Assembly: GCA_040235515.1 (NCBI GenBank)
Contig: JBECKX010000179.1
Coordinates: 23,148 to 87,147 of the forward strand
From: Candidatus Zixiibacteriota bacterium
Lineage (GTDB): Bacteria > Zixibacteria > MSB-5A5 > CAIYYT01
Direction of reading: 5' to 3'
Length of the DNA: 64,000 nt
The notes under the pieces are model-generated. The model was not told where the DNA came from. It worked only from the letters and a program-made list of their open reading frames with translations, and ran no database searches. A program made the position numbers and the translations under genes. Numbering within the stretch: the first letter of the stretch is position 1; every line of letters begins with the position of its first letter. Positions 1 to 59,708 of this stretch are shown here, piece after piece.

Positions 1-1
1 G

Positions 2-775
2 ACAGGGGTGGCCGTGCGCGGGGAGGTCACGACGGCGTCACGAGTGATGTCGGCCAACGCTGAGGCCGCTGGCACACCTCGATTGGTGCTCTATGGTTCA
101 CCAAAGCTCGAGTTCCCTTACAACAGCAAATCTGTCTGGGCACCTGTCGGTGATGCAAGCGCTGAGAGGATGCCTGATGCATGGAGAGTCGTTGCGATCG
201 GCGGGGAGATGGTCAGCCGGGAAACACAAGCTGCTTACGGGCTCGAATTTCGGGAGGGTTCCCTGCAAGTCGTGAGTACCGGCCCGGCTGAGAGTGACAA
301 GGTCTTTGGCGCGTGGGACAGATTGGGCGACAGCAAGACACTCGAGATCAGTTTCCCTCGCTACGCGACGTTTTCGGCGATCGCCACGAGAATACAGGGG
401 ATATATGGGTTCGTGGTGGTAGCGCTGCTTTCGGGGATCTTCGGAGTTGGGCTCTATCCGCTTCTGGGCACACGAGTTTGGTGCAGGTTCTTCTGCCCGC
501 TCGCTGCGATCCTGGGGATTGTCCAGAAGTTCGGGCGCTTTCGCATCACGGTGAAGAAGGATATGTGTATCTCTTGCGGTAATTGCTCGACCTATTGCGA
601 GATGGGTATCGATGTACGATCGTATGCGCAAGCGAACCTCAGCTTCAAGCGAGCTGCGTGTGTGGGTTGCGGGATGTGCGCACATGTCTGTCCGCGCGGG
701 GTACTCAAGTTAGAGAACAAATGGGATTTGGGGCCAAACGATGAAAATTCGAACATCCAGATACTGGATATGTGA
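2..775 (+). CDS. 4Fe-4S binding membrane protein (NapH/MauN/YccM-like), 5'-partial
   Basis: Frame is open to the window edge. TM helix, WCRFFCPLAA motif and two ferredoxin motifs (CISCGNCSTYCE, CVGCGMCAHVCP). Confidence 0.8.
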   Translation, partial: TGVAVRGEVTTASRVMSANAEAAGTPRLVLYGSPKLEFPYNSKSVWAPVGDASAERMPDAWRVVAIGGEMVSRETQAAYGLEFREGSLQVVSTGPAESDKVFGAWDRLGDSKTLEISFPRYATFSAIATRIQGIYGFVVVALLSGIFGVGLYPLLGTRVWCRFFCPLAAILGIVQKFGRFRITVKKDMCISCGNCSTYCEMGIDVRSYAQANLSFKRAACVGCGMCAHVCPRGVLKLENKWDLGPNDENSNIQILDM

Positions 776-785
776 CGGTGCTTTT

Positions 786-1658
786 ATGAGTGATTCAGTT
801 GTGCGTTTGCAGGCACGAGGACGCAGAACACCGACTCTGCGTCGAGTGTTGGCGACAATAATGCTAGCGGCGTTGGCAGTTGCGGGATGCAGCCAGGCGG
901 AAACCGAAGCTGGTGGGGCGCGAATCTCGGCGGTCAAGCTGGATCATAGCTATGCCGGTTATGCGCGACTGCTTGCAAGCTATGTGCAGGGTGCAAGGGT
1001 TGACTATGCCGGGCTCAAATCGGATCGCGCCGCCCTGGACTCTGTGGTAGCGATGATCGCCGATGCGGAATTGACAGATGCGTCTACTCAACAAAGACTG
1101 GCGTTCTATATCAATGCCTACAACATCCTGACGCTGCGTTCGATCGTCGCTGCCTACCCGGTGAAGTCAATCAAGGATATCGATGGTGTCTGGCAGAAGA
1201 AATGGCGCGTTGCCGGACGCGAGCTTTCCTTGGACCAGATAGAGAACCAGATTCTGCGCGTTGAGTTTTCGGAACCGCGCATCCATGTAGCGATCAATTG
1301 TGCTTCGATCAGTTGTCCGCCACTGCGCGGGGAACCATACAGGGCCGAACGAATCGAGGAACAACTCACTGAGGCGAGCCGCGGCTTTGCGACTTCGAAC
1401 CACTACAACCAACTCCTTCCGACCGAAGGCAAAGCCAGGATTTCGATGATATTCGATTGGTTCGGCGGTGATTTTGTGGAACAGTTTTACCAGCCGGGTC
1501 ACGCTGCAAAACTTTCGAAGGAAAAGAATGCTGCATTGAGTTTCCTGATCAAGTACTCGAGCCTGACCGACTCTGTGGAGTCATTGCCGGAGGAGTGGGA
1601 AGTCAGCTTTATCGAATATGACTGGGGATTGAATGAGATACCGAACGATGCACGCTGA
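786..1658 (+). CDS. DUF547 domain lipoprotein
   Basis: LAFYINAYN, EPRIHVAINCASISCPPL, ISMIFDWF and YDWGLN motifs; lipobox-like LAVAGC. ATG 786 preferred over 741, which overlaps the upstream gene. Confidence 0.85.
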   Translation: MSDSVVRLQARGRRTPTLRRVLATIMLAALAVAGCSQAETEAGGARISAVKLDHSYAGYARLLASYVQGARVDYAGLKSDRAALDSVVAMIADAELTDASTQQRLAFYINAYNILTLRSIVAAYPVKSIKDIDGVWQKKWRVAGRELSLDQIENQILRVEFSEPRIHVAINCASISCPPLRGEPYRAERIEEQLTEASRGFATSNHYNQLLPTEGKARISMIFDWFGGDFVEQFYQPGHAAKLSKEKNAALSFLIKYSSLTDSVESLPEEWEVSFIEYDWGLNEIPNDAR

Positions 1659-1703
1659 GCATCCACCGGTTCGTATGCGACTGCTTCAGCAAATAGCTGC
1701 TTT

Positions 1704-2399
1704 ATGACTCTCGGCAACCGCAAGATCATCGCAATCATCCCGGCATTGAACGAAGAATCCTCTGTTGGAAAGGTCATCACAGAACTACCCGGGATGGTGA
1801 ATGGCGTGATCGTCTGTGACAATGGATCGACCGACCGTACAGCTGCTGTGGCGCGGGAGGCTGGCGCGAAAGTAGTTGAGGAGATAGAGAGAGGCTACGG
1901 TGCTGCGTGTTTGCGGGCAATCGCGGCGGCGCCTGCTGATACCGGCGTATTGCTCTTCATAGACGCAGACTACTCGGACTTTCCTGAAGAGGCGACAAAC
2001 CTGCTGGAACCGTTGGCGGAGGGACATTACGACCTGGTCATCGGTTCGCGCATGTTGACCTACAGCGACCACAAGGCGCTGCCACCGGTGGCGGCATTCG
2101 GCAACTGGCTGACCAGTAACTTGATCCGCATTATCTGGGGTGCGCGATTCACCGACATCGGCCCGTTTCGGGCGATCAGGTATGAGCAATATCAGAAGTT
2201 GGAAATGAAGGACCGCAACTTTGGCTGGACGACAGAGATGCAGGTGAAGGCAGTGAAGCGTGGGTTGCGGTGCCTTGAAGTTCCGGTCAGGTATCGTCCG
2301 AGGATCGGGGAGTCAAAGATTTCGGGGACAATCTCCGGCTCGATCAGGGCGGGCTTCAAATTCTTGTGGATCATCCTCCGGGAGGCGTTCTCCCGATGA
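1704..2399 (+). CDS. Glycosyltransferase family 2 (polyprenyl-phosphate glycosyltransferase-like)
   Basis: IIPALNEE, DNGSTD, GYGAAC, DAD, VIGSR, FTDIGPFRAI, EVPVRYRPRIGESKI motifs. Confidence 0.9.
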   Translation: MTLGNRKIIAIIPALNEESSVGKVITELPGMVNGVIVCDNGSTDRTAAVAREAGAKVVEEIERGYGAACLRAIAAAPADTGVLLFIDADYSDFPEEATNLLEPLAEGHYDLVIGSRMLTYSDHKALPPVAAFGNWLTSNLIRIIWGARFTDIGPFRAIRYEQYQKLEMKDRNFGWTTEMQVKAVKRGLRCLEVPVRYRPRIGESKISGTISGSIRAGFKFLWIILREAFSR

Positions 2400-3700
2400 A
2401 GTGGAGGGTGATTCTCTATTCGCTGATTGCGCTCTTCCTCTTGACTGAGATTGCAATTTTCCTGCCTGACTATGATGAGCCTCGGATGGTAAAGTTCATC
2501 GTGATTTCGCAGATCCTGATGCTACTATCAGTGGGGATTTTCCTGGCCGGAAAGAAACTTCAGATTGCAGCGGGGATGGCGCGCCACGTCTGGATTGTTG
2601 TTCTGCTCGCGGTTGTCGCTCGCACGGTCATGTTGATCGGAGCGGGGGACAAATTCTATATCTCCGATGATATCTACCGTTATGTGTGGGACGCCAAGGT
2701 CAATGCGGCGGGAATAAACCCTTATCTTCATGCGCCCGATTCCGATTCGTTGAGGGCCTATCGGGAGGGTGAAATCTTCGGGCAGATCAATCACAACTGG
2801 CTGCCCACCATCTACCCCCCAATGGCTCAGAATATCTTCTTCGTGGTCTACCTGCTGGGAGGTGAGAACCTGTTCGCCTTCAAGCTGGTCACTGCGTTCT
2901 TCGAGTTGCTAACTTGTTTGGCGCTGTTCGTGCTGGCACGCGAGTGGGGAATACCACCAGCGAATTTGCTGCTCTATCTGTTTTCACCGCTGGTACTGAT
3001 CGAGTTTTACCTATCAAACCACCTCGACATTCTCGCGCTGCCCTTCCTGGTGGCCGGTTTGATCACGCTGAAGCGGCGACAGGCGTTGCTGACCGGCATG
3101 CTGCTGGGACTCGCGACGCTCGTGAAGTTCTTCGGGCTCTTCTTCCTGCCAGTCGTCTTCTTCCACCTTAAAGGGAAAGAGAAGCTTCATTTTGCGGCTG
3201 CCTTCGTGGTTACTGCAGTTGCATTGTATCTGCCCTACATCGCCGATGGTGGACTGAGCGTGTTCGGGTCGTTGTTCGAGTATCTGCAGGAATGGCAGTT
3301 TAATGCTTCGGTTTATTTCGTGCTGAAATACTTCCTCAAGGTAGAAATCGCGCGCTATCTCGTAGCTGGGGCTTTCGTGGTCTGGGTGGGATGGTTGCTC
3401 GCGCGCAAACTACCGATCGAGCGGAAACTTCAGGATACCTTCGGTGGTTATATGGTGCTGACACCGACGCTGTTCCCCTGGTACTTTGTCTGGATCTATC
3501 CAATGTTGTTGAGGACCCTGTCACCTGCATTTATCTATCTCTCAGGCGCGCTGCTCCTCTCCTATCATGTTCACATAGGCTACTATGACACCGGTACCTG
3601 GTCGCCGATGCCCTGGTTGGGAATCGCGGCGTACGTTCCGTTTTATGCATTGCTGGTCGGAGTAACGTTGTTTCGAAGGGTGCGGCTTAAGGTGCAATGA
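2396..3700 (+). CDS. Polytopic GT-C superfamily glycosyltransferase (DUF2029/GT87-like)
   Basis: Many TM helices; SDDIYRYVWD, TIYPP and FPWY motifs; ATGA overlap with the upstream stop. Confidence 0.75.
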   Translation: MKWRVILYSLIALFLLTEIAIFLPDYDEPRMVKFIVISQILMLLSVGIFLAGKKLQIAAGMARHVWIVVLLAVVARTVMLIGAGDKFYISDDIYRYVWDAKVNAAGINPYLHAPDSDSLRAYREGEIFGQINHNWLPTIYPPMAQNIFFVVYLLGGENLFAFKLVTAFFELLTCLALFVLAREWGIPPANLLLYLFSPLVLIEFYLSNHLDILALPFLVAGLITLKRRQALLTGMLLGLATLVKFFGLFFLPVVFFHLKGKEKLHFAAAFVVTAVALYLPYIADGGLSVFGSLFEYLQEWQFNASVYFVLKYFLKVEIARYLVAGAFVVWVGWLLARKLPIERKLQDTFGGYMVLTPTLFPWYFVWIYPMLLRTLSPAFIYLSGALLLSYHVHIGYYDTGTWSPMPWLGIAAYVPFYALLVGVTLFRRVRLKVQ

Positions 3701-5154
3701 CAGATCTGCTCATAATCACATATTTCGCTCTGCTGTTCTTTATCAGTTTCTATGGCGTGTACCTCTATTGGCTGGTGGTCAACTATCTGCGTTTGCCCGG
3801 TCAAACCCCACTCGTTCCGATGGAGCCTGAAGATGCCACGAACTTGCCGATGGTCACCGTTCAGTTGCCAATCTTCAATGAGAAACGCGTTGTCGCGCGC
3901 CTGATCGAGGCGGTGACACACTTCGAGTGGCCGCAGGAGAAACTGGAAATTCAGGTGCTCGACGATTCGACAGACGAGACGAGTGAGATAGTCGCACGTT
4001 TGGTGACCGAGCTGAGTGGTCGCGGAGTGACGATCGAGCATATCAGAAGGCCCCACCGCGCCGGCTACAAAGCTGGTGCTCTGGCCGTGGGGCAGGAGAA
4101 GGCGCGCGGAGAATTCATCGCGATCTTCGATGCGGATAACATCCCGCCGAGCGATTTTTTGCGGCGTATGATTCCATACTTCGATGATCCCCGGGTTGGT
4201 ATGGCGCAGGCGCGCTGGAGTTTTCTTAATCGGGATGACTCGCTGTTATGCCAGGCGCAGGCGTTGTTTCTCGATTCACATTTCTACATCGAGCAGGCGG
4301 CGCGATCACGTGCAGGTTTGTTTCTGAATTTCAACGGAACGGCAGGTATCTGGCGGCGCCGGGCGATCGACAGCGCGGGCGGCTGGCAATCGGATACGCT
4401 GACCGAGGATCTCGACCTCTCCTATCGCGCACAGTTGCTTGGCTGGAAGATGTTGTTTGTCGAGGATGTCGATGTCCCGACCGAGCTACCCAATTCGGTG
4501 CGCGCCTTCAAGACGCAACAGCATCGCTGGGCGCGCGGTGCGATGGAGACCGGTTTCAAGTTGCTCGGGCGGGTACGCAGGGCGAAGTTGCCATTGGCGG
4601 TCAAGATTGCGGCGCATTTTCATCTGACGCAGAAGGTGGTGTCGGTTGCGTTACTGCTGCTGTCGATTCTGTTGATCCCGGCGCTCTATTTTCGCTGGGA
4701 AGCAAGCGCCTACAAAGTACTGCTGATCGACCTGCCGGTGTTTATTACCGGTATGGGGGCGATGTCGGTTTTTTATGGTATCGCGTACCGCCGTGAAAAG
4801 AAGAATCACAGTGCGAGGGCACGGCTGGTACTGCCGATGTTGAGCGCAATCGGGCTGGGACTGGCAGCGAACAATTCACTCGCTGTGATCTCGGCGCTGA
4901 AGCGGCGCGAGAGCGAGTTCGTCAGAACACCGAAGACCGGTTCGGCACGGGGTCGCAAGCTGGGCATTCCTCACGAGTATCGTGTGAGTTTCGACAGGAC
5001 GTTGCTGGTTGAAGCGCTGCTCCTGGCGAACGGCAGCATTGCGTTCATTTATGCGTTTGATCTCGGCCTCTATTTCAGCCTGCCATTTCTCGCAACCTTT
5101 GTGTTCGGCTACGGCTATTTCGTCGTGAATTCTTTGCGGGAGAGATATGGGTAA
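3697..5154 (+). CDS. GT2 glycosyltransferase, cellulose-synthase-like (D,D,D,QxxRW), membrane-bound
   Basis: VTVQLPIFNE, DDSTD, GYKAGAL, FDAD, TED, QQHRW, FVRTPK motifs; ATGA overlap. Confidence 0.9.
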   Translation: MTDLLIITYFALLFFISFYGVYLYWLVVNYLRLPGQTPLVPMEPEDATNLPMVTVQLPIFNEKRVVARLIEAVTHFEWPQEKLEIQVLDDSTDETSEIVARLVTELSGRGVTIEHIRRPHRAGYKAGALAVGQEKARGEFIAIFDADNIPPSDFLRRMIPYFDDPRVGMAQARWSFLNRDDSLLCQAQALFLDSHFYIEQAARSRAGLFLNFNGTAGIWRRRAIDSAGGWQSDTLTEDLDLSYRAQLLGWKMLFVEDVDVPTELPNSVRAFKTQQHRWARGAMETGFKLLGRVRRAKLPLAVKIAAHFHLTQKVVSVALLLLSILLIPALYFRWEASAYKVLLIDLPVFITGMGAMSVFYGIAYRREKKNHSARARLVLPMLSAIGLGLAANNSLAVISALKRRESEFVRTPKTGSARGRKLGIPHEYRVSFDRTLLVEALLLANGSIAFIYAFDLGLYFSLPFLATFVFGYGYFVVNSLRERYG

Positions 5155-5797
5155 AATTGCAGTCGGGCTGATGGCCAAGTTTCCGGAAATGGGGAAAGTA
5201 AAAACCAGGCTGGCCGCTGAGATAGGAGATCCCGCAGCGCTGCAGATCTATGCCACACTGCTGCAAATTGTGATGGAGAAGCTGAGGGAGCTTAACCGCG
5301 ACCGATTTCAAACCTCTGTATTTGTAGCCCAGGAGAAACTGGTGGAGCGTTTCAGGTCACAATACCCGGGTGCGGCACACTACGCGGCGCAGAGTGCCGG
5401 TGACCTCGGTGCTCGTATGGAAGCAGCGATGCGAAATCTGCTCACCGGCGACAGTATCGAGGGCGTGCTGCTGATCGGTGCAGATATTCCGGGAATCACC
5501 GCGGAAATCGTCGAGGAAGCAGCCTCGCAGTTGCTGGCGCACGACCTTGTCCTCGGGCCGACATTTGATGGTGGCTATTATCTGATAGGGTCGCGCACCG
5601 TGCATCCGGAGTTGTTCCGGCAGATGGAGTGGAGCACCGATTCGGTCCTTTCGGAAACACTGAAGCGGGCCGGCGATGCAGGCTTGACGATTTTCCGCCT
5701 CGAAGAGCTGTCGGACCTCGACACTCTGGAGGATGTCGGTCGACTGCCGCGTGAAAGCAACGCCTTGATCAATTTACTCGACACGTACTCGTCCTAG
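5147..5797 (+). CDS. DUF2064/CofC-like glycosyltransferase (arsenosugar-cluster associated family)
   Basis: AKFPEMGKVKTRLA, QSAGDLGARM, IGADIP, LGPTFDGGYYLIG, WST, DLDTLED motifs. Confidence 0.85.
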   Translation: MGKIAVGLMAKFPEMGKVKTRLAAEIGDPAALQIYATLLQIVMEKLRELNRDRFQTSVFVAQEKLVERFRSQYPGAAHYAAQSAGDLGARMEAAMRNLLTGDSIEGVLLIGADIPGITAEIVEEAASQLLAHDLVLGPTFDGGYYLIGSRTVHPELFRQMEWSTDSVLSETLKRAGDAGLTIFRLEELSDLDTLEDVGRLPRESNALINLLDTYSS

Positions 5798-5825
5798 TTG
5801 GGGCGAGAGATTCAGGAGCTGAAGC

Positions 5826-6158
5826 ATGGGTGATTATTTCGATTCGAAGGATCTGGCGAAATTCGGCAAGATTGGCAGGGTCAACAAGGAGCTCGCCGAC
5901 AAATACTTCGAGTACTACAACAGCGTTATGCAGGAGGGCAACCTGAGCGCCCGCGAGAAGGCGCTGATTGCGCTCGCGGTAGCACACACCCTGAAGTGTC
6001 CCTATTGCATCGATGCCTACTCCACAGCGTGCATGGAGAATGGAGCAGATGAGGAACAGATGAGTGAAGCCGTTCATGTGGCCGCCGCGATGTCGGCGGG
6101 CATAACGCTAGTCCACAGCGTCCAGATGCAAAATCATATCGACTCACTGATGGGTTAG
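5826..6158 (+). CDS. AhpD/carboxymuconolactone decarboxylase-like protein (arsS-associated peroxidase-like family)
   Basis: LSAREKALIALAVAH, CPYCIDAY, EAVHVAAA motifs; lies directly upstream of arsS. Confidence 0.85.
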   Translation: MGDYFDSKDLAKFGKIGRVNKELADKYFEYYNSVMQEGNLSAREKALIALAVAHTLKCPYCIDAYSTACMENGADEEQMSEAVHVAAAMSAGITLVHSVQMQNHIDSLMG

Positions 6159-6193
6159 TCGGTGGGGCGGTAGTTTGGAGATCGGAGCGTGAA

Positions 6194-7189
6194 TTGAAGC
6201 TGGAAAAACAACTGCGCACACTCGAATCGTACGAGCAACCGTTCTGGAGATTCGTCAAGGAGCATTCCAACAATGGTGGCAGCTTGACGGCGTTGTCGAT
6301 TAAGACGTTTCAAGTCAATGTGGGAAAACGCTGCAATCAAACATGCGTACATTGCCATGTCGATGCCGGACCGACTCGAAAGGAGATGATGACGCGTGCA
6401 ACCGTAGACCGCTGTCTTGAGATCATTGCCGGCGTTCCGGGAATCGAGACGGTAGACATCACCGGTGGCGCGCCGGAGATCAACCCCAACTTCCGGCATC
6501 TCGTAACGGAGTCGCGTCGGCTCGGTAAGCATGTGATTGACCGCTGCAATCTCACGATTCTGGAATACGAGGGATTCGAGTATCTCTACGAATTTCTCTC
6601 CGACAACAGGGTAGAGATTGTGGCGTCACTACCTCACTTCGCAAAGAGCAACACTGATCGCCAGCGCGGCGCAGGTGTGTATGATAAATCAATCAACGCG
6701 CTGAAGAAGTTGAACGAGCTTGGCTACGGAACTGAACTACCCCTCAATCTGGTGTACAATCCGGTTGGCTTGTTCCTGAGTGCGCCACAGAAGCAACTGG
6801 AGCGTGAGTTCAAGCAGGAACTTCAGCGCAGGCATGGAATCGTATTCAACAACCTCTATTGCATCAATAATCTGCCAATCAACCGTTTCCTGGCGTTCCT
6901 TGTCCGGAATGGCCGGTTCGAGGATTACATGGAGACACTGGTGACATCGTTCAATCCCGGGACGCTGGAGGGATTGATGTGTCGCCACCAGATTTCAGTC
7001 GGCTATGACGGTAAGATCTATGATTGCGACTTCAATCAGATGCTGGAGCTGGAAGCGCAGCCGGTTGGACATATCAATGGTTTCAACCTCGATGAGTTTA
7101 TGGCACGCCGGATCGAGATCGGCAACCACTGCTTCGGGTGCACGGCAGGTTCCGGTTCAAGCTGCGGTGGCGAGATCATCGAAGTCTGA
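6194..7189 (+). CDS. arsS: Arsenosugar biosynthesis radical SAM protein ArsS (radical SAM plus Cys-rich DUF3641 C-terminus)
   Basis: CNQTCVHCHVDAGP (CxxxCxxC), DITGGAPE, YDCDFNQML, HCFGCTAGSGSSCGG; TTG start after GGAG. Confidence 0.9.
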   Translation: MKLEKQLRTLESYEQPFWRFVKEHSNNGGSLTALSIKTFQVNVGKRCNQTCVHCHVDAGPTRKEMMTRATVDRCLEIIAGVPGIETVDITGGAPEINPNFRHLVTESRRLGKHVIDRCNLTILEYEGFEYLYEFLSDNRVEIVASLPHFAKSNTDRQRGAGVYDKSINALKKLNELGYGTELPLNLVYNPVGLFLSAPQKQLEREFKQELQRRHGIVFNNLYCINNLPINRFLAFLVRNGRFEDYMETLVTSFNPGTLEGLMCRHQISVGYDGKIYDCDFNQMLELEAQPVGHINGFNLDEFMARRIEIGNHCFGCTAGSGSSCGGEIIEV

Positions 7190-7431
7190 CGTGAATCTGG
7201 CGTGACCGGACCACAAATTCATATTCTTCACCCGGATCAGCGGGTTGGAGATTGAAATCGTGGGTATCGATCGCCTATACTTCAGGTTAAGTTAGCTCAC
7301 AACGGCACACGGGAAAGAAGGGGCGGGGAGTCTGTGGCATTCGGGACAGAGCGTGTGCCTCCCTCATCGCCCACCAACCGCTACCTTGATGCGTTTTTAG
7401 TTAAGGATTTGCTCACAGAGTCGTGAGATGT

Positions 7432-7449
7432 TTGTGAAAAAAAGCACGA
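7432..7449. promoter_or_regulatory. Possible Rex- or CRP/FNR-family binding site upstream of the cbb3 operon
   Basis: TTGTGAA-aaaa-AGCACGA, an 11/14 match to the Rex consensus TTGTGAA-N4-TTCACAA. Confidence 0.35.
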
Positions 7450-7600
7450 ACATGGGGCTGAAACGTCAGCGCGGATAGATGTTTGCGTGGCGGAACCGTC
7501 GGCATTACGCATTGTGCTGCAACAGTTTATGAGATAGGCCGCAATGGCGCCTATCATGGACTGATCTAATCCAAATACCCTACTTTGTCATAAATTTCGC

Positions 7601-7628
7601 TTGACTCTCTCAGGTGAGGAGTTACTAT
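7601..7628 (+). promoter_or_regulatory. Sigma70-type promoter of the cco operon
   Basis: TTGACT-16 bp-TACTAT, about 120 bp upstream of ccoI. Confidence 0.55.
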
Positions 7629-7648
7629 TGGGGAGTCTTTAATCGGCG

Positions 7649-7675
7649 ATTACACTAGTTGGCATTACACTAGTT
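7649..7675. repeat. Perfect 12-bp direct repeat ATTACACTAGTT x2 (3-bp spacer)
   Basis: Copies at 7649-7660 and 7664-7675, just downstream of the predicted -10 box. Confidence 0.85.
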
Positions 7676-7748
7676 TTCGTGTTTCATGTAACAGTTGTCC
7701 ATTGTCTTAGTCTGGTAACTTGGCGCGTAGCCGGGATTATGAATAGCA

Positions 7749-10217
7749 GTGAATCGATTTGAAGATGCCGAGGGCGGCGAAACATTAGAGGGCACCACCA
7801 TCGCTGGAGTGGAAGCGTCGCCCGAGTTGAGTTGCGCCCACTGCGGTGATCCCTGCAGAGAGAGTGACCCAAAGCTTGGGGAGAAGTACTTCTGCTGCCA
7901 CGGCTGCCTTACTGTTTATCGAATGCTGACAGAACACAAACTGGGCAACTATTACCAGTTGAATGCTCAGCCGGGGCTGTCACTCAGGCAACATTCGGGG
8001 TCGGAGAAGTTTGAGTTCCTGGATGATCCTGAAACGGCGCGTCGTTTGCTCGATTTCAGTGATGGAAAGCTGGCACGGGTTCAGCTGTATGTTCCGCAGG
8101 TTTACTGTTCCTCCTGTATCTGGCTCCTGGAAAATCTCTATCGCTTACAACCTGCTGTGCTGGAGTCGAAGGTTGATTTCGTAAAGAAGGAGATCGCCAT
8201 CTCCTTCCGTGAAGATAAGCTTACGCTGCGCGAGCTGGTGGAGTTACTGGCGTCGCTCGGCTACACCCCCAGCCTTACGCTCGATACGACAGAGAAGAAA
8301 CCGGATCGGAGAATCGGGCGGCGATTGTTGCTTCAGACCGGGCTGGCCGGGTTTGCCTTTGCCAACATCATGCTGCTCAGTTTCCCCGACTATCTCGACA
8401 CCGTTGGCGCCATCGGCTCGGAATTCACGCGCTTTTTCGGTGTGGTTAGCCTGGTACTGGCCACGCCTGTCTTCCTGTACAGTGCTGCGGACTTTTTCAA
8501 GACCGCCTGGGGCAGCCTGCGACGCCGCCAGATGCACCTGGATGTTCCAATTTCGCTCGGCATTATTGCCCTGTTTGCTCGCAGTATCTATGACATAGTC
8601 ACGGCGACCGGTACGGGGTTCCTGGACTCGATGTCGGGGCTGGTGTTTTTCCTGCTGATCGGTCGCATAATCCAGACCAGAACTTACAGGGCGCTCTCAT
8701 TCGACCGCGACTACAAGTCCTACTTCCCGCTCTACGTGACTCGCGTCAGCGGTGACACCACCCAACAGGTCGCCGCCACCAATGTCACTGTCGGTGACAG
8801 GATTGCGGTGAGAAACGGTGAGCTGGTTGTTGCTGATGCGATACTGATCAGCAGCGAGGCGAGCATCGACTACAGCTTTGTGAGTGGTGAAGCTGAGCCG
8901 GTGAGGCGCAAATCGGGGGATTTGGTCTATGCCGGCGGCCGGGTCAGCGGTGATCGGGTCGAGCTGGAAGTGGTAAAGGATGTCTCCCAGAGTTACCTCG
9001 TCAGCCTCTGGAATTCGCAGCAATTCAAGCGGGAGCGGGAGAGTAAAGCCTCTCAGCTGGCCGAGAGTGTCGCACGTTATTTTACCGCCGGAGTGTTGCT
9101 GCTTGCGGCGATTACCTTTGCCGCCTGGTTTCCGCAGGGATTGAACAGCGCGTTGCTCACGGCGACTGCGGTGTTGATCGTGGCTTGTCCCTGTGCGCTG
9201 GCCTTGACGATTCCGTTCACTTATGGTACGGCGATGCAGGTGATGGGAGCACGGGAGCTGTATCTGCGCAACCAGGGCGTGGTTGAGGGGTTGGCGAAGG
9301 CTGACACGATCGTTTTCGATAAGACCGGTACGCTGACGGTCGGCGGCAGTGGTGGAGTGGAGTTCGAGGGTGAGGCTTTAACTGCGCGCGAACGCCACCT
9401 GATCAAGTCGCTGGCGCTGCAATCGATCCACCCGATGAGTCGTCAAATCGTCGAGATGCTTGATCACGCTACGGCTTCGATTCCCCAGGGAGTAACTGAA
9501 AACCCCGGTCGAGGAATCTTAGGGCGGGTAGCGAATGTTGAAGTAAAAATCGGTTCACGCGAGTGGATCGGGACCGAGCCGGGGAATGCTGCGGATGCAG
9601 CGCCTGAGTCTGGCGGCGAAGCCTGGGTCACATTTGACGGTGTGATACGTGGTCGATTCGTGATGCGGTCGCAGGTGCGACCCGATGTCGGGCAGAGTCT
9701 CTCGACCATGAGAAATACGCATTCGCTCTGGTTGCTCTCCGGTGATGGCGACCGCGAGAAGGCGCGTTTCACCGATTATTTTGAGGATGACAAACTGATC
9801 TTCAGGCAGTCACCACAACAGAAGCTCGATTTCATGGACAGGTTACGGAGCGGTGGCAAGCGACTGATCATGCTCGGTGACGGGCTCAATGACGCCGGTG
9901 CGCTGGCTGCCAGTGATGTGGGGATCGCGGTCTCCGACCGGGTGGCATCCTTCACTCCGGCCAGCGACGCGATCCTGGCGGGGGAGTCTTTGTGGCGGAT
10001 GCCGGCCTTTATTGGCCTGAGCAAACGCGCGATCAAGATAGTGGTCGCCGGATTCATAATATCATTTGTCTATAATTTCGTGGGATTATACTTTGCCGTA
10101 ACGGGTCAACTTTCACCACTTTTGGCGGCGATTCTGATGCCGCTCTCCTCGGTGACGGTTGTCGGATTTGCGGTAGCCGCCACCAGATTGGCGGCGAAAC
10201 GGGAAGGTTTGATATAA
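7749..10217 (+). CDS. ccoI: Cu-translocating P1B-type ATPase for cbb3 assembly
   Basis: N-terminal CAHCGDPC...FCCHGC, CSSC HMA domain, CPC, DKTGT, GDGLND motifs; leads the cco cluster. Confidence 0.92.
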   Translation: MNRFEDAEGGETLEGTTIAGVEASPELSCAHCGDPCRESDPKLGEKYFCCHGCLTVYRMLTEHKLGNYYQLNAQPGLSLRQHSGSEKFEFLDDPETARRLLDFSDGKLARVQLYVPQVYCSSCIWLLENLYRLQPAVLESKVDFVKKEIAISFREDKLTLRELVELLASLGYTPSLTLDTTEKKPDRRIGRRLLLQTGLAGFAFANIMLLSFPDYLDTVGAIGSEFTRFFGVVSLVLATPVFLYSAADFFKTAWGSLRRRQMHLDVPISLGIIALFARSIYDIVTATGTGFLDSMSGLVFFLLIGRIIQTRTYRALSFDRDYKSYFPLYVTRVSGDTTQQVAATNVTVGDRIAVRNGELVVADAILISSEASIDYSFVSGEAEPVRRKSGDLVYAGGRVSGDRVELEVVKDVSQSYLVSLWNSQQFKRERESKASQLAESVARYFTAGVLLLAAITFAAWFPQGLNSALLTATAVLIVACPCALALTIPFTYGTAMQVMGARELYLRNQGVVEGLAKADTIVFDKTGTLTVGGSGGVEFEGEALTARERHLIKSLALQSIHPMSRQIVEMLDHATASIPQGVTENPGRGILGRVANVEVKIGSREWIGTEPGNAADAAPESGGEAWVTFDGVIRGRFVMRSQVRPDVGQSLSTMRNTHSLWLLSGDGDREKARFTDYFEDDKLIFRQSPQQKLDFMDRLRSGGKRLIMLGDGLNDAGALAASDVGIAVSDRVASFTPASDAILAGESLWRMPAFIGLSKRAIKIVVAGFIISFVYNFVGLYFAVTGQLSPLLAAILMPLSSVTVVGFAVAATRLAAKREGLI

Positions 10218-10219
10218 GC

Positions 10220-10426
10220 GTGTCCGCGATTTTTCTGCTCATCGGTGCAAGCCTGCTGGTGGCGGTGGGATTCCTGGCGTTGTTCGTGTGGGCGGTCAGG
10301 AGCGGCCAGTATGAGGATACGGTCACCCCGAGTATGAGAATGGTGGTTGACGATGACGGCGCGGTGCCTGGCGGGCAGCACGGCGCTTCGGTGCAAAGAA
10401 AAGATAGCAGTAACAACCTGGAGTGA
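10220..10426 (+). CDS. ccoS: cbb3-type oxidase maturation protein
   Basis: TM helix followed by WAVRSGQYEDTVTPSMRM. Confidence 0.9.
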   Translation: MSAIFLLIGASLLVAVGFLALFVWAVRSGQYEDTVTPSMRMVVDDDGAVPGGQHGASVQRKDSSNNLE

Positions 10427-10442
10427 TGGAGTGAGCTGACGC

Positions 10443-12575
10443 ATGGAAGTCGAACAATTTTCATACGACAATAAAATCGTCAGGTATTTCACCTACGCGA
10501 CCGCCTTATGGGGCGCAGTAGGTATGTTGGTCGGGGTGATCGTCGCCCTGCAGATATTTATTCCGGAAGCGAATTTCGGTATCTCGTGGTTGACCTATGG
10601 CAGGCTCAGGCCGCTGCACACGAATGCTGTAATTTTCGCTTTCGTCGGCAACGGCATTTTCGCCGGCGTCTATTACTCGCTGCAACGACTCTGCAAAGCG
10701 AGGATGTGGTCTGACCTGCTGAGCAAGCTGCATTTCTGGGGCTGGCAGTTGATCATCGTCTCGGCGGCGATCACTTTGCCACTCGGGTATACCACCTCGA
10801 AGGAGTACGCGGAGCTGGAGTGGCCAATCGATATCCTGATCGCGCTCGTCTGGGTGATTTTCACGGTCAACATGTTCGGAACGATATTCAAGCGGCGCGA
10901 ACGTCATATGTACGTCGCGATCTGGTTTTACATCGCGACCGTCGTGACGGTGGCGATGCTGCATATCGTTAACTCAATCGAGTTCCCGCTATCGTTGATG
11001 AAGAGTTATCCGGTTTACGCCGGAGTACAGGATGCGCTGGTGCAGTGGTGGTACGGCCACAACGCCGTGGCGTTCTTCCTGACCACACCGTACCTGGGGT
11101 TGATGTACTACTTCGTGCCGAAGGCGGCGAACCGTCCGATATTCTCCTACCGGCTCTCGATCATTCACTTCTGGGCGCTGATCTTCATCTACATCTGGGC
11201 AGGCCCTCACCATTTGCTTTACACCTCACTCCCTGACTGGGCTCAGTCGCTCGGCACGGTGTTCTCGATCATGCTGATTGCTCCGTCCTGGGGTGGCATG
11301 ATCAACGGATTGTTGACATTGCGTGGCGCCTGGGATCGAGTACGCACCGATCCGATTTTGAAGTTCTTCGTTGTAGCGATAACGGCTTACGGTATGGCAA
11401 CTTTCGAGGGGCCGATGCTTTCGATAAAGAGCGTCAATGCTATCTCGCACTACACCAGCTGGACCATTGCCCATGTGCATGTGGGAGCGCTCGGCTGGAA
11501 CGGATTGCTGACCTTTGGCATGCTGTACTGGATGGTGCCTCGTTTATTCAAGACGAAACTCTATTCGGTCAAACTGGCGAATTTGCACTTCTGGATATCG
11601 ACGCTGGGGATTGCCTTCTATGCCATCCCGATGTATTTCGCCGGTTGGATGGAAGGATTGCTCTGGAAGCAGTTCACGCCTGAGGGTTTCTTGCAATACC
11701 CCAACTTCCTTGAGATCGTTACCCAGATCATCCCGATGTATGCGATTCGTGCATTCGGCGGCGCGCTTTACCTCTCCGGCGTATTCGTGATGGCGTACAA
11801 TTTGATCAAGACGATGAAATCGGGTGTGGCGGAGGACAACGAAGCTGCCGAAGCCCCGGCGTTGCCGAAGAAGTATCATGAGAAGGAAGTTCATCCATAC
11901 CGTCACCGCTGGCTGGAGGCCAAGCCGGCACAGTTTATCGTGCTGACCTTTATCGCCGTGGCCATCGGCGGATTGATCGAATTCATACCGACATTCATGG
12001 TAAAATCGAATGTGCCGACGATTGCGTCGGTACGCCCTTACACGCCGCTTGAATTGGAGGGTCGCGACATTTATATCCGCGAGGGATGCAACAACTGCCA
12101 TTCGCAGATGATCAGACCATTTCGCTCCGAGACCGAGCGCTATGGTGAATACTCCAAGGTTGGTGAGTTCGTGTATGACCATCCGTTCCTCTGGGGTTCC
12201 AAGCGCACCGGACCTGATCTGCACCGTATCGGCGGCAAGTACCCCGATGCGTGGCATTATCAGCATATGGAGGATCCACGCTCGATGTCGCCGGGATCGG
12301 TAATGCCGCCTTACCCGTGGTTGCTGACCAGCAAGCTTGACACCTCGCATACTCGCGACAAGATATCATTGATGCGATCGCTCGGAGCGCCATACAGCGA
12401 TGGTTACGAGGAGCAGGCGATGGCCGACTTACAGGAACAGGCGGAGGGAATTTCCAAGGGGCTTGAGGAAGCGAAGATCATCACCGACTGGGATTCCGAG
12501 ATCGTGGCCCTGATTGCTTACCTGCAACGACTTGGAACCGATATCAAGGTAGAGGGGGCGCAGGCGGGATTATGA
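10443..12575 (+). CDS. ccoN: cbb3-type cytochrome c oxidase, fused subunits I and II (CcoN-CcoO)
   Basis: RLRPLHTNAVIF, QWWYGHNAV, GPHHL, AHVH, then the CcoO part with CNNCHSQMIRP and WGSKRTGPDL. Confidence 0.97.
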   Translation: MEVEQFSYDNKIVRYFTYATALWGAVGMLVGVIVALQIFIPEANFGISWLTYGRLRPLHTNAVIFAFVGNGIFAGVYYSLQRLCKARMWSDLLSKLHFWGWQLIIVSAAITLPLGYTTSKEYAELEWPIDILIALVWVIFTVNMFGTIFKRRERHMYVAIWFYIATVVTVAMLHIVNSIEFPLSLMKSYPVYAGVQDALVQWWYGHNAVAFFLTTPYLGLMYYFVPKAANRPIFSYRLSIIHFWALIFIYIWAGPHHLLYTSLPDWAQSLGTVFSIMLIAPSWGGMINGLLTLRGAWDRVRTDPILKFFVVAITAYGMATFEGPMLSIKSVNAISHYTSWTIAHVHVGALGWNGLLTFGMLYWMVPRLFKTKLYSVKLANLHFWISTLGIAFYAIPMYFAGWMEGLLWKQFTPEGFLQYPNFLEIVTQIIPMYAIRAFGGALYLSGVFVMAYNLIKTMKSGVAEDNEAAEAPALPKKYHEKEVHPYRHRWLEAKPAQFIVLTFIAVAIGGLIEFIPTFMVKSNVPTIASVRPYTPLELEGRDIYIREGCNNCHSQMIRPFRSETERYGEYSKVGEFVYDHPFLWGSKRTGPDLHRIGGKYPDAWHYQHMEDPRSMSPGSVMPPYPWLLTSKLDTSHTRDKISLMRSLGAPYSDGYEEQAMADLQEQAEGISKGLEEAKIITDWDSEIVALIAYLQRLGTDIKVEGAQAGL

Positions 12576-12769
12576 TACACGATATCTTCACATCGATTGA
12601 GGGAGTGGGGCTTTACCCCATCATCACACTGATTCTGTTCCTGGTGGTCTTTGTGGCGGTCGGTTTATGGGCGTTGTTTGCCAACCGCGAATACCTGGAC
12701 CACATGAAGCAACTACCACTAGAAGATTCCGACCTGAGCGTCGGAGTGGGAGAGCGGAAAGATGGCTGA
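12572..12769 (+). CDS. ccoQ: cbb3 oxidase small subunit
   Basis: Single TM helix, ...HMKQLPLED; position between ccoO and ccoP. Confidence 0.8.
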   Translation: MIHDIFTSIEGVGLYPIITLILFLVVFVAVGLWALFANREYLDHMKQLPLEDSDLSVGVGERKDG

Positions 12770-13430
12770 GTATAAGGACGAACTGCTTGACCACGAGTAT
12801 GACGGTATCCGTGAACTGGATAACGACCTGCCGCCCTGGTGGCTCTACATGTTCTATATCACGATCGCCTGGGGAGTACTCTATTTCGCTTACTACCACG
12901 TTTTCGATATTGGCTATTCCTCAACCGATCAGTACATGGCGGAACTGGATCCGAAGTACACGCGCGATCAGAATCCCAATTACTCGCCGCCGAAGTTGAT
13001 CCGGACGTATCATTCTCCCTGGTACAGTTCGCGCGGCGACGAGACACCTTACTCGATTGCGATGTCAGGCCCGCAGGCGGAATTCGTGGAAATGAACCGC
13101 GAGGATGAGCCTGAGGTAGATGCACTGACCGCTCCGGAAGCGCTTGCCGCCGGCGAACAGTTGTTCAAGAAGAACTGTGTGCAGTGTCACGGCGTCGCGG
13201 GTGAGGGCGGCATCGGGCCGAACCTCACAGATCAGTACTGGCTGCATGGCGCGGGGATCAACAATGTTCTTCGTACAATCAAATATGGTGTCCCCGCGAA
13301 GGGGATGATTGCCTGGCGCGGTTTTCTCTCACAGGAAGAGATCCACGAGGTCGCCAGCTACATCCTGACGTTGGAGGGCACCAATCCTCCGAACGCCAAG
13401 GCCCCTCAGGGTGAGTTAGTTACTGAATAG
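12762..13430 (+). CDS. ccoP: cbb3 oxidase subunit III (monoheme cytochrome c)
   Basis: HEYDGIRELDNDLPPWW; one CxxCH (CVQCH); GPNLTD; KGMIAW. Confidence 0.93.
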   Translation: MAEYKDELLDHEYDGIRELDNDLPPWWLYMFYITIAWGVLYFAYYHVFDIGYSSTDQYMAELDPKYTRDQNPNYSPPKLIRTYHSPWYSSRGDETPYSIAMSGPQAEFVEMNREDEPEVDALTAPEALAAGEQLFKKNCVQCHGVAGEGGIGPNLTDQYWLHGAGINNVLRTIKYGVPAKGMIAWRGFLSQEEIHEVASYILTLEGTNPPNAKAPQGELVTE

Positions 13431-13506
13431 TCATGCATAGTCGCGCCGCCCGGCTGGAGATCCCTGCCGGCGCGGCCGCTTCCCTTGCTATTGGAGTGAT
13501 GCTGCA

Positions 13507-14979
13507 ATGTCAGCTCCGCAGACCGACAAACCAGATTCTTACCGCGACCATATCTCGACAGTTGACGATTCCGGAAAGCGAGTAATCCTCTATCCGACGA
13601 AACCGAAGGGGCGTTATCATCGGGCGCGCCTGATCGTCAGCTGGTTTCTGCTGGCATTTATGTTCGGGGCGCCATTCATCAAGGTGAACGGTCACCCGCT
13701 GATGCTGCTGAACGTATTCGAACGCAAGTTCGTGATCTTCGGCACAGCTTTCTGGCCACAGGATTTTTACCTGTTTGTCTTTGCGGTGCTCTCGTTTGTG
13801 GTGTTTATCGTTCTCTTCACGGTGATCTTCGGCCGATTGTGGTGCGGTTGGGCGTGTCCCCAGACGATTTTCATGGAGATGGTTTTCCGCAAGATCGAGT
13901 ATTGGATCGAGGGCAACGCCGGCAAGCAGCGCAAGCTCGACCGCTCGCCCTGGACGGCCCAGAAGACTTTCAAGAAGCTCACCAAGCATGCAATCTTTCT
14001 CGCCATCTCGTTCCTCGTGGGCAACACGGTGGTTGCGTGGCTGGTTGGCGTCGAGAAGTTGCAGGAGTTGATCACCGACGGTCCCGGTGCACATCTCGGC
14101 GCGTTCATCGGCGTAGTCGTATTCAGTCTGATAACCTACGGCGTATTCGCACGCTTCCGCGAGCAGGTCTGCCTGATTGTGTGTCCCTACGGAAGACTTC
14201 AGTCGGTATTGCTTGACGACAGGTCGATTGTCGTGTCATACGACTTCAAACGTGGCGAGCCGCGAAAGCCGATGTCGCTGAAGAAGGATGAGACGCGCGA
14301 AGCGGGGGATTGCATCATGTGTAATTCGTGTGTCGATGTTTGCCCCACCGGCATCGATATTCGCAACGGAACGCAGCTTGAGTGCATCAACTGCACGGCC
14401 TGTATGGATGCCTGCGACACCGTAATGGACAAAATCGGATTTGAACGCGGGTTGGTTCGCTATGCCTCTCACAAACGAATCCTGGAGGGGCTGCGACTAA
14501 AGGTCACGCCGCGCATGATCGGCTATTCGGCGGTGCTGGTAGCGCTCTTGACGCTGCTGGTGTTCTTATTGCTGGGACGAAGTGATTTCGAGACTACGAT
14601 CTTCCGTACCCCCGGAGTGATGTTCGAGGAACTGGAGAATGGAAACATCCGTAATCTCTATTCGATCAAGGTGATCAATAAGACGTTTGATCCTTACGAC
14701 GTGGAACTGAAGCTCAAGGATATCGAGGGTTCGATCAGTATGGTTGGCGGCGATATCACGCTGCCGCGACAGGGGCTTGCCGAAACAGCGTTCTTTGTGG
14801 ATATTCCACAACGGGTGCTGAAGTCATCGCGTCAAGATATCGTGATCGATGTGTTTGCCGGCGACAGGTTGGTGGAGACGGTCGAATCGACGTTCTTAGG
14901 CCCGCGCGTGAGCGTGCATCGGGATGACGTTGCTGATCCGGAAGAAAAAGAATCAGACAAGGCGAACGATGGAAACTGA
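13507..14979 (+). CDS. ccoG: Cytochrome c oxidase accessory protein (4Fe-4S cupric reductase)
   Basis: GRLWCGWACPQT, CPYGRLQ, CIMCNSCVDVCPTGIDIR, ECINCTACMDAC. Confidence 0.95.
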   Translation: MSAPQTDKPDSYRDHISTVDDSGKRVILYPTKPKGRYHRARLIVSWFLLAFMFGAPFIKVNGHPLMLLNVFERKFVIFGTAFWPQDFYLFVFAVLSFVVFIVLFTVIFGRLWCGWACPQTIFMEMVFRKIEYWIEGNAGKQRKLDRSPWTAQKTFKKLTKHAIFLAISFLVGNTVVAWLVGVEKLQELITDGPGAHLGAFIGVVVFSLITYGVFARFREQVCLIVCPYGRLQSVLLDDRSIVVSYDFKRGEPRKPMSLKKDETREAGDCIMCNSCVDVCPTGIDIRNGTQLECINCTACMDACDTVMDKIGFERGLVRYASHKRILEGLRLKVTPRMIGYSAVLVALLTLLVFLLLGRSDFETTIFRTPGVMFEELENGNIRNLYSIKVINKTFDPYDVELKLKDIEGSISMVGGDITLPRQGLAETAFFVDIPQRVLKSSRQDIVIDVFAGDRLVETVESTFLGPRVSVHRDDVADPEEKESDKANDGN

Positions 14980-15460
14980 CAGGAAAACTGAGAGCAAGAC
15001 CGCAAAGCCGAAGGACCGGACGTGGGGAATCGGTATAGCCGTGTTCTACTCGTTGTTCGTGGTAGTGACCTTGGGCCTCGTCTTCTACGCCACGTTGCAG
15101 AAGTTCGATCTGGTGGCGGAGAACTACTACGAGGATGGGGTCAGGTATCAGGATCGCATCGACCAGAAGCGCCTGGCCGAGTCTGCAGAGTACAAGCTCG
15201 AGATCAAGTATGATCGGGCGAATCGCGCAGTGAATCTGCAATTCCCCGAGAATCTGGCGACAGACTCTATTTCGGGCAAGGTCGTGTTGTTCAGACCGTC
15301 AAACGCTTCACTCGATCGGCACTGGGAGTTGCAGGTGGATACGGATGGTTCACAGCGACTCGACCTCAAGGGCGCCAGCAAGGGAGTCTGGAAAGTGATG
15401 GTCTACTGGAAGGCCGGGAGCACCGACCTGTACAGTGAAAAGTCAATCTACGTCGAGTAA
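14969..15460 (+). CDS. ccoH: FixH/CcoH family protein
   Basis: WGIGI-TM helix, DLVAENYYEDGVRYQ, FRPSNASLD. Confidence 0.85.
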   Translation: METDRKTESKTAKPKDRTWGIGIAVFYSLFVVVTLGLVFYATLQKFDLVAENYYEDGVRYQDRIDQKRLAESAEYKLEIKYDRANRAVNLQFPENLATDSISGKVVLFRPSNASLDRHWELQVDTDGSQRLDLKGASKGVWKVMVYWKAGSTDLYSEKSIYVE

Positions 15461-15490
15461 TAGTTAGCTCGCGAGCACGAGAGAGAGCTT

Positions 15491-51051: not shown

Positions 51052-51491
51052 GCTCTCCTCCTGGTGGTTGATGGGTGCAGGGGCGTGTGATGATGCTCGT
51101 AATCCATGTTGCCCCTCTGGATTTTACAGTAGCGAACAGAAGCGTCGGGAACCAGTGCGGGCCTATGGTTCGGCGCTGCTATCTGCTGGTGCTTTGCGCT
51201 AAAGAATCTGCGCGGACGATCTGGTTATGACTGAATTGCTGAACGTTGCTTATGGCCCCACAGGCCTTTAGTGCTCTCAGGTTCAGTATAAGTCCGTAGT
51301 TGTCTCAGGCAAGTTAAATTAGCATTTAACGATCGTTTCTGTCCATGTTTCGAACTGCGACTCGGTACGACCTATCCGATCTGATTCGGCACAACCGATC
51401 GTGCCTGAAGCGGATTTGCGAATCCGCTCCCGACAAAGCTTCGCCAATTGCAGGCCCAACTCAGGTTGTATGCGACTCGCAGCCGGGTATC

Positions 51492-58943: not shown

Positions 58944-59708
58944 ATGTCGGATCAGAAGAATATCAAGGATACAGTCAGGGAGAAGTATGGTGAGATTGCC
59001 CGCGGCGAGGCCTCGTGTTGTTCACCGGTAAAGACCTCCTGCTGTGGTGGAGTGGATCAACAGATAATCGATCTCTCGCACGGTTATAACTCGGCCGATC
59101 TGGATTCGCTTCCGGAAGGCGCTTCGATGGGTCTGGGATGTGGTAATCCACTCAACCTGGCGGAGATCCAGCCCGGCTGGAAGGTGCTCGATCTTGGCAG
59201 CGGGGGTGGTGTGGATGTCTTCCTGGCGGCAAAAAAGGTTGGTCCCACCGGTCATGTGACCGGGCTCGATATGACCGACGATATGCTCGACAAGGCTCGC
59301 CGCAACGCTGAGGCGGGAGGGTTCGACAACGTGACGTTCACCAAGGGTGATATCGAGGAGATGCCGTTCGAGGACAACACGTTTGATCTGGTGATCTCCA
59401 ATTGTGTCATAAACCTCGTACCGGACAAGCGCAGAGCTTATCGCGAAATCCATCGAGTCCTGAAACCGGGCGGCAGAATCGGTATTGCCGATATGGCGAC
59501 TCGTGGCGAGATGCCCGCCGAGATCCGCAAGTCAGCCGAGGCGTGGGCCGGTTGCGTCGCCGGCGCGATCGACCTCGATGAGTACCTCGAACTCGTCAAG
59601 TCGGAAGGGTTCAAAGAGGTGGAGACCCGCTTCGAGAACGAGTATGATTTCGCCAGGTCCGCTGATTATGCGTTGCTGTCGATTGGACTGGTGGGGACGA
59701 AATCGTAA
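58944..59708 (+). CDS. arsM: Arsenite S-adenosylmethionine methyltransferase
   Basis: VREKYG, N-terminal CC pairs, GLGCGNP, LDLGSGGG, SNCVINL, WAGCVAGA. Confidence 0.9.
   Translation: MSDQKNIKDTVREKYGEIARGEASCCSPVKTSCCGGVDQQIIDLSHGYNSADLDSLPEGASMGLGCGNPLNLAEIQPGWKVLDLGSGGGVDVFLAAKKVGPTGHVTGLDMTDDMLDKARRNAEAGGFDNVTFTKGDIEEMPFEDNTFDLVISNCVINLVPDKRRAYREIHRVLKPGGRIGIADMATRGEMPAEIRKSAEAWAGCVAGAIDLDEYLELVKSEGFKEVETRFENEYDFARSADYALLSIGLVGTKS

Follow-up and report, generated by a model that had tools for sequence, protein, structure and literature searches.

We analysed a window of 64,000 nt from Candidatus Zixiibacteriota bacterium (contig JBECKX010000179.1; G000:C77:23148-87147), near the start of which arsS, the gene for an enzyme of the radical S-adenosylmethionine (SAM) type, closes a tightly packed operon that also encodes three glycosyltransferases (GTs), a DUF2064 protein, an AhpD-like protein and a DUF547 lipoprotein. 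According to our reading, which we hold to be about evenly poised between right and wrong, ArsS and a conserved five-gene module (DUF547-GT2a-GT87-GT2b-DUF2064) would carry arsenoribose-1-phosphate to a nucleoside diphosphate (NDP) sugar, then to a polyprenyl carrier and finally onto an envelope glycan, every step after ArsS being one that we infer.

Organisation of the arsS operon

The operon, with the unlinked arsM gene, comprises the following features.

L001:18076-19329, outside the window: FAD oxidoreductase, preceding the 4Fe-4S membrane protein gene
1..775, +: C-terminal-coding part of a 472-aa NapH/MauN-like polytopic 4Fe-4S protein; the gene begins upstream, at L001:19357
786..1658, +: DUF547 lipoprotein (PF04784, 96 bits; lipobox VAGC), first gene of the five-gene module, in a conserved position
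1704..2399, +: GT2a, of the polyprenyl-phosphate sugar synthase type with a soluble domain (PF00535)
2396..3700, +: GT87-like GT-C (PF09594, 29.9 bits, cut-off 25)
3697..5154, +: GT2b, membrane-type GT2 carrying D,D,D,QxxRW (PF13641)
5147..5797, +: DUF2064/TIGR04282 protein, CofC-like fold (185.7 bits, cut-off 134)
5826..6158, +: AhpD-like CPYC protein (TIGR04169, 178.1 bits, cut-off 120)
6194..7189, +: ArsS radical SAM enzyme, TTG start (TIGR04167, 429.8 bits, cut-off 300)
58944..59708, +: ArsM arsenite methyltransferase (NF008823, 322 bits, cut-off 263), unlinked, ~52 kb downstream of arsS

A sequence-only reading of this DNA had described seven genes on the plus strand, from the DUF547 lipoprotein to ArsS; the positions of the open reading frames (ORFs) and the sequence bear out this order, neighbouring genes overlapping by ATGA at 2396 and at 3697 and by 8 bp at 5147, and the remaining gaps measure 10, 45, 28 and 35 bp. 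Given this spacing, the seven genes are probably co-transcribed. The run does not begin at the lipoprotein gene, where that reading had started it: the FAD oxidoreductase and 4Fe-4S membrane protein genes lie further upstream and are likely to form the start of the operon, upstream of the window. This pair, or a fused FAD/Fe-S gene, adjoins the module in 6/6 phylum genomes having an adjacent radical SAM gene. A promoter scan of window positions 1-8000 returned six sites against 4.5 expected and gave nothing informative, the likely promoter falling outside the scanned part, and terminator-like sites over the same positions numbered 14 against 7.3 expected, mostly within ORFs. A horizontally acquired island was rejected on G+C content, 54.7% here and 55.0% in the genome.

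Profile searches of each ORF upheld the gene assignments, with matches to PF04784, PF00535, PF09594, PF13641, TIGR04282, TIGR04169 and TIGR04167, and the proteins carry the motifs lipobox VAGC, DAD, SDD, DDSTD/FDAD/TEDLD/QQHRW, CPYC and CNQTCVHC. The last is the CxxxCxxC motif of ArsS, which also matches PF12345 (176.8 bits) and PF04055 and ends in a DUF3641 Cys-rich tail; no solved ArsS structure was found. Since ArsS, the AhpD-like protein and DUF2064 all pass NCBIfam 'arsenosugar' cut-offs, the arsenosugar core is already named, and the idea that the latter two proteins work in arsenosugar synthesis was already contained in the NCBIfam names. The canonical arsenosugar set is represented in this genome by TIGR04282 and TIGR04169; arsM does not adjoin arsS, and none of 12 matches to TIGR04283, the customary second transferase, in the genome, rated 100% complete, lies above cut-off (best 58.9 of 182 bits).

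A five-gene module tied to ArsS-type enzymes in the phylum

We surveyed 121 genomes of the phylum Zixibacteria, defining the module through GT2b. ArsS occurs in five of them and a close GT2b in 14; all 13 of the relatives' GT2b loci were inspected, and 10 hold the five genes in this order while three hold GT2b alone. The conserved unit, DUF547-GT2a-GT87-GT2b-DUF2064, is thereby present in 11/121 genomes, and its gene order is more than chance, recurring in relatives from three other families of the phylum. Four of the 10 module relatives continue into ahpD-arsS, while G035 carries in that slot a different radical SAM gene, here called rSAM-X. In the other five the module stops at DUF2064, which stays with the GT trio, and each of these genomes has an rSAM-X relative elsewhere.

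Across the phylum sample, rSAM-X was found in exactly six genomes, all module-bearing and without ArsS. The module genomes thus divide into five with ArsS and six with rSAM-X, never both, and none of the other 110 genomes has either. The GT2b genes of the module form a single clade within which ArsS and rSAM-X genomes alternate, pointing to one origin of the module, with the radical enzyme likely exchanged several times. All 10 module relatives have an arsM match, eight of them above the PRK11873 cut-off (counted in module genomes only), and G034 combines rSAM-X with an arsenosugar-type ArsM (NF038099, 533 bits, cut-off 400). TIGR04283 was not found in the six phylum genomes whose radical gene adjoins the module (this genome and 5/5 relatives).

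DUF2064 is not restricted to module genomes, a candidate pattern that we rejected: 17/121 genomes have a match above cut-off, six of them without the module. A TIGR04282 match at E 1e-15 occurs in 101/121 genomes, mostly of a distant paralogue kind; in this genome such a distant DUF2064 paralogue (G000:C136:9932-10702) adjoins a creatininase-like gene.

The sequence-only reading had joined the GT trio to arsS. A link to ArsS-type radical SAM enzymes holds in the phylum (11/11 module genomes, 0/110 others), and the module recurs with arsS in Bacteroidota clusters; a tie to arsS itself failed that reading's own refuting condition, with six of the 11 phylum module genomes lacking ArsS, and after the wider surveys we likewise rejected a general partnership between ArsS and the trio.

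Associations outside the phylum

These surveys covered 151 Bacteroidota and 236 Pseudomonadota genomes, both sets sampled by strata and containing many close relatives and many incomplete genomes, together with the 80 top-ranking GTDB arsS loci (12 kb or longer in 54 cases) and 80 metagenomic GT2b loci, many of them short. Among the 80 best arsS loci, an AhpD-like gene is near 52, DUF2064 near 18, ArsM near 14 and GT87 near four, and all three GTs occur in two (Pontibacter L071 and Cesiribacter L082); the 80 metagenomic GT2b loci contain ArsS in none and GT87 in four. GT2b as an arsenic-specific clade was also rejected, the module label needing six changes on the GT2b tree.

In Bacteroidota, a joint profile finds 65 ArsS-like genomes with one match each, a count that includes a different radical SAM-ArsM fusion (G238). 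DUF2064 is present in 82 genomes, including 65/65 of the ArsS-like ones, and TIGR04283 in 71, all DUF2064-positive; GT87 occurs in 37, all with GT2b, which itself occurs in 70. GT2b and ArsS-like genes coincide at chance level (34 genomes observed, 30.1 expected, p 0.25), and GT87 is weakly associated with ArsS-like genes (22 observed, 15.9 expected). A sharper pattern links GT87 to TIGR04283: GT87 and GT2b are present in 11/11 DUF2064-positive Bacteroidota without TIGR04283, and GT87 in 17/71 with it (Fisher p 1.5e-6, overstated because near kin are not independent). This complementarity, together with the exact either/or profile of ArsS and rSAM-X in 121 genomes, is what is new here.

In Pseudomonadota, 123 genomes are ArsS-like, 124 have TIGR04283 and 119 have both, and GT87 occurs in 3/236, each time 5-25 kb from rSAM-X. 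One gammaproteobacterial run (L285), in a genome without TIGR04283, encodes a phosphorylase, rSAM-X, an ArsM-like protein, DUF2064, DUF547, GT2a, FAD/Fe-S, GT87 and GT2b, and so carries the whole proposed route. The Bacteroidota clusters L220 and L221 (and L243 over the part inspected) likewise contain ArsS, ArsM, purine nucleoside phosphorylase (PNP), DUF2064, FAD and Fe-S genes and GTs, in differing orders. A phosphorylase gene adjoins DUF2064 in Bacteroidota clusters, in L285 and on two plasmids.

Separately, we observed a GT87 fused to a C-terminal SAM methyltransferase (609-642 aa) at four Bacteroidota loci (L206, L207, L208 and L215), a candidate for sugar O-methylation. A replicon of the cultured Pseudoalteromonas Bsw20308 (L306:5847-14470) has the order GT2b-GT87-FAD/Fe-S-GT2a-DUF2064-TIGR04283-like, with no radical SAM gene nearby. 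At L265, L266, L269, L272-L275 and L279, DUF2064-TIGR04283 stands at the arsS site of kin, and no ArsS-like gene was found in these eight related genomes.

rSAM-X, an ArsS-like radical SAM family

rSAM-X is not a member of the ArsS family as defined by profile, scoring 44.1 bits against the TIGR04167 cut-off of 300 and passing no NCBIfam cut-off; its loci reach 29-73 with the profile of ArsS and 199-451 with that of rSAM-X. Profile alignment nevertheless matches it to ArsS over its full length (hhalign 98.8%, 277 columns, ~22% identity) and brings the C-terminal cysteines of the two into register. Having a twitch-like Cys tail is not known to be exclusive to ArsS. The structural model of rSAM-X (pLDDT 84.6) matched generic SPASM/twitch enzymes only, and a quick tree, which carries long-branch warnings, does not settle a sister relation with ArsS. 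The family is large (4033 clusters at E 1e-30) and falls into three or more subgroups.

Its neighbourhoods point to a role like that of ArsS: rSAM-X occupies the arsS slot, is found together with TIGR04283 and, in two other phyla, adjoins arsM-like genes. In Bacteroidota, 14 of the 65 ArsS-like genomes fall into the rSAM-X score band, and all seven inspected were confirmed; in six of these seven loci an ArsM-like gene (181 of 263 bits, PRK11873) lies directly upstream and overlaps rSAM-X. Three of these genomes (L282-284) keep DUF2064-TIGR04283 and miss ahpD-arsS at a chromosomal site where, in their relatives (L232-234), ahpD-arsS precedes DUF2064 or TIGR04283. In Pseudomonadota, 18 inspected loci are of the rSAM-X type, with an adjoining arsM-like gene in three and TIGR04283 in 17 of the genomes, and a Roseomonas plasmid carries rSAM-X among TIGR04282, DUF547 and VTT genes. 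The AhpD-like gene accompanies ArsS, and none was seen beside rSAM-X. Judged by gene content and position, rSAM-X likely replaces ArsS plus AhpD in some relatives and would do ArsS's job there.

In one subgroup, rSAM-X is coupled to a metallophosphoesterase gene; its G064 representative is fused to an FAD oxidoreductase (L190:891-3035; L191:5651-6448; L202:15101-15934). Fusions of related enzymes were also seen: a 1012-aa radical SAM-ArsM-Cys-rich protein (L244:7657-10695) and a 713-aa ArsS-ArsM protein (L044:9959).

Predicted roles and proposed route

The proposed route would begin with ArsM making dimethylarsenite, which ArsS, assigned here by profile, would adenosylate to dimethylarsinoyl-adenosine (DDMAA). 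DDMAA is a 5'-substituted adenosine, like methylthioadenosine (MTA). A nucleoside phosphorylase, unlinked here, might then free 5-dimethylarsinoyl-ribose-1-phosphate; a PNP is encoded elsewhere in this genome (C50, 48%). Literature searches found no papers that assign enzymes to steps after DDMAA or assign these genes, though subscription papers and supplements may already treat them.

DUF2064 is predicted to be a sugar-1-phosphate nucleotidyltransferase, and its CofC-like fold suggests that it would form the NDP-sugar. It falls short of membership among CofC guanylyltransferases (CofC profile E 4e-7, 29.8 bits against the TIGR03552 cut-off of 105), its PDB profile matches are 3CGX, 2I5E and 6BWG, and it has an invariant K, an invariant R and a C-terminal D-x-D; resembling CofC/FbiD nucleotidyltransferases, it would activate a sugar 1-phosphate and not act as a glycosyltransferase. 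Its product may have two exits, the five-gene module or TIGR04283.

In the first of these, GT2a would charge polyprenyl phosphate and GT87, acting outside the cytoplasm, would pass the sugar onto a glycan that GT2b makes, by analogy with the MtxS and MtxT enzymes of methylthioxylose (MTX) capping. GT2a, predicted to load the sugar onto the lipid carrier as MtxS does, has AglJ and dolichyl-phosphate hexose transferase at the top of its NCBIfam matches, none above cut-off, and matches DPM synthase 5MLZ at E 2e-8. GT87, predicted to transfer the sugar from the carrier as MtxT does, has at least eight hydrophobic segments by hydropathy and an SDD loop nearly invariant in the alignment; its PF09594 match is partial but above the gathering score, and it matches mannosyltransferase 9DM5 weakly (E 0.043). 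The acceptor, a glycan or glycolipid, would be built by GT2b, and the DUF547 lipoprotein is placed in the periplasm. A lipid-carrier route through a GT2/GT-C pair, as in the sequence-only reading, has a real precedent in the MtxS/MtxT work; as the product, an envelope glycan appears likelier than the classical arsenosugar phospholipids, which have TIGR04283 as their commoner partner.

Most speculatively, the AhpD-like protein, predicted to be a thiol reductase for methylarsenicals, and the FAD/4Fe-4S pair might hold arsenic or an enzyme reduced. One study describes ArsS as converting dimethylarsenite and SAM to DDMAA without NADH, in a redox-neutral adenosylation (PMC13598754), so the 4Fe-4S protein, earlier proposed as an electron supply, is not needed as a stoichiometric donor for ArsS.

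Weighing the reading against its alternatives

A number of findings weigh against the route outlined above. The module is missing from the majority of ArsS-like genomes (GT87 in 22/65 Bacteroidota and 3/123 Pseudomonadota); conversely, 15/37 GT87-bearing Bacteroidota have no ArsS-like gene, nine of these also lacking DUF2064, and 29/70 GT2b-bearing Bacteroidota have neither DUF2064 nor an ArsS-like gene, with a mostly housekeeping neighbourhood at the 20 loci inspected. Both GT87/GT2b and DUF2064/TIGR04283 persist without any ArsS-like gene, and G227 and G267 have a linked trio with weak, generic radical SAM matches only. The complementarity appears in just one (L285) of the four ArsS-like Pseudomonadota without TIGR04283, and TIGR04283 was matched, three times above cut-off, in the other five module genomes of the phylum, whose 11 module genomes are not independent given their single GT2b clade. 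The gene calls of the run include no phosphorylase. Related modules also stand beside other chemistry: in Methylobacterium one pairs with a SPASM-type radical SAM enzyme; a Miltoncostaea plasmid (L204:2738-17061) has selABD beside DoxX, AhpD-like, a radical SAM gene ending at TGA, a GT87-GT2a fusion, a DUF2064-NUDIX-like fusion and a SPASM enzyme; and a Kitasatospora plasmid carries a homologous set of MTA phosphorylase, DUF2064, GT2a (38% identical) and GT87 (profile E 5e-43) with a methyltransferase and an epimerase and no arsenic genes. This last set supports the chemistry and indicates that the module is not arsenic-specific.

Such clusters give some force to an alternative that we nonetheless think unlikely, namely that the module handles, quite generally, the 5'-substituted riboses that SAM chemistry yields (methylthioribose, 5-deoxyribose or a sulfur or selenium analogue), with arsenic occasional or minor and rSAM-X perhaps alkylating another heteroatom. 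The low identity of rSAM-X to ArsS and the occurrence of DUF2064 and TIGR04283 without an ArsS-like gene in 17 and 15 of the 151 Bacteroidota genomes fit it, as do the MTX-like cluster and the selABD neighbour; the adjacency of rSAM-X to arsM-like genes (6/7 Bacteroidota and 3/18 Pseudomonadota loci), its pairing with NF038099 in G034 and the lack of an epimerase in the operon speak for arsenic. That the product of GT2a, GT87 and GT2b is instead a glycolipid or surface glycan of ordinary hexoses, with ArsS served only by DUF2064 and the AhpD-like protein in an operon shared by regulation or history, strikes us as distinctly improbable. GT87 implies GT2b (37/37) far more tightly than an ArsS-like gene (22/37), GT2b is commonly found without arsenic genes, and its chance-level coincidence with ArsS-like genes and the metagenomic loci without ArsS would be expected. 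Against this, the linkage is repeated in three phyla with differing gene orders, GT87 and TIGR04283 are complementary in 11/11 Bacteroidota, and DUF2064, whose translation is coupled here to that of GT2b, is kept with the trio where the radical SAM gene lies elsewhere. We give very little weight to the possibility that the trio ends at isoprenoid 2-O-methyl arsenoribosides or the classical arsenosugar phospholipids, with no glycan transfer: TIGR04283 without GT87 is the rule among ArsS-like genomes (TIGR04283 in 119/123 Pseudomonadota), and a GT-C with a QxxRW GT2 would, on general grounds, be superfluous for a single glycosidation, even though the four GT87-methyltransferase fusions would suit such products and ether-linked isoprenoid arsenosugars occur in nature (PMC7345539).

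We keep the route through a polyprenyl carrier to an envelope glycan as our working reading. Its fullest form, which we advance tentatively and would sooner doubt than believe, is an arsenic twin of MTX capping, in which an envelope glycan would be capped with dimethylarsinoyl-ribose by way of phosphorylase, DUF2064, polyprenyl-phospho-arsenoribose and GT87, with the widespread rSAM-X as a second DDMAA synthase. The operon offers a hypothesis that runs in order from gene to gene, with a precedent that has been characterised and a branch point between TIGR04283 and the lipid-carrier trio, and clusters are carried by cultured bacteria (Cesiribacter sp. SM1, Pontibacter sp. FD36 and Pseudoalteromonas Bsw20308). 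If true, an arsenic-capped envelope glycan would be a class missed by solvent extraction, a second ArsS-type enzyme family would exist in at least three phyla, and bacterial arsenosugar makers would be undercounted by TIGR04167.

Other genes in the window

A cbb3-type oxidase operon (7749-16225) begins 560 bp after arsS, with the same neighbour only in G043; we take its genes to be a P-type ATPase, fused ccoNO, ccoP, ccoG-like, fixH-like and a sulfite-exporter-like membrane protein. On the minus strand, 48106-54440 encodes two tandem secreted paralogues of ~980 aa each, with C-terminal repeats that are presumably dockerin-like.

Comparison with known systems

ArsS, the AhpD-like protein and DUF2064, all above cut-offs, and an ArsM in the genome recall the Synechocystis sp. 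PCC 6803 ArsM-ArsS pathway as well as NCBIfam's set of TIGR04167/TIGR04169/TIGR04282/TIGR04283; unlike these, the present genome has no TIGR04283 above cut-off and an unlinked arsM, and the operon adds GT2a/GT87/GT2b, DUF547 and the FAD/4Fe-4S pair. DUF2064 shares profile similarity with the CofC/FbiD guanylyltransferases (CofC, PDB 2I5E and 6BWG) but is far below the CofC cut-off, its substrate being a prediction. A GT2 carrier loader with a GT-C transferase is also the plan of three-component lipid-carrier systems (GtrA/B/C, ArnC/ArnT, Ppm1/PimE), from which the operon differs in its predicted donor, an organoarsenic sugar, and in having no recognised flippase gene; DedA/VTT genes occur in some related clusters.

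In mycobacterial MTX capping, we take Rv0535 to be the phosphorylase, Rv0536 the epimerase and Rv0540 the DUF2064 protein. The operon has the polyprenyl-phosphate GT2 and the GT-C of an MTX-type cluster and lacks the linked MTA phosphorylase and epimerase that mark such clusters. The likeness is one of function and of the Kitasatospora and Nonomuraea homologues. Relative to MTX capping, the operon adds ArsS, AhpD, GT2b and DUF547 and has no epimerase. The closest working precedent is the methylthioxylose capping of lipoarabinomannan by MtxS (Rv0539, GT2) and MtxT (Rv0541c, GT-C), in which a polyprenyl-phosphate sugar synthase works with a GT-C on a pentose substituted at the 5' position: MtxS forms MTX-P-C50 and MtxT transfers MTX (10.1101/2021.09.08.459334; PMC12088412).

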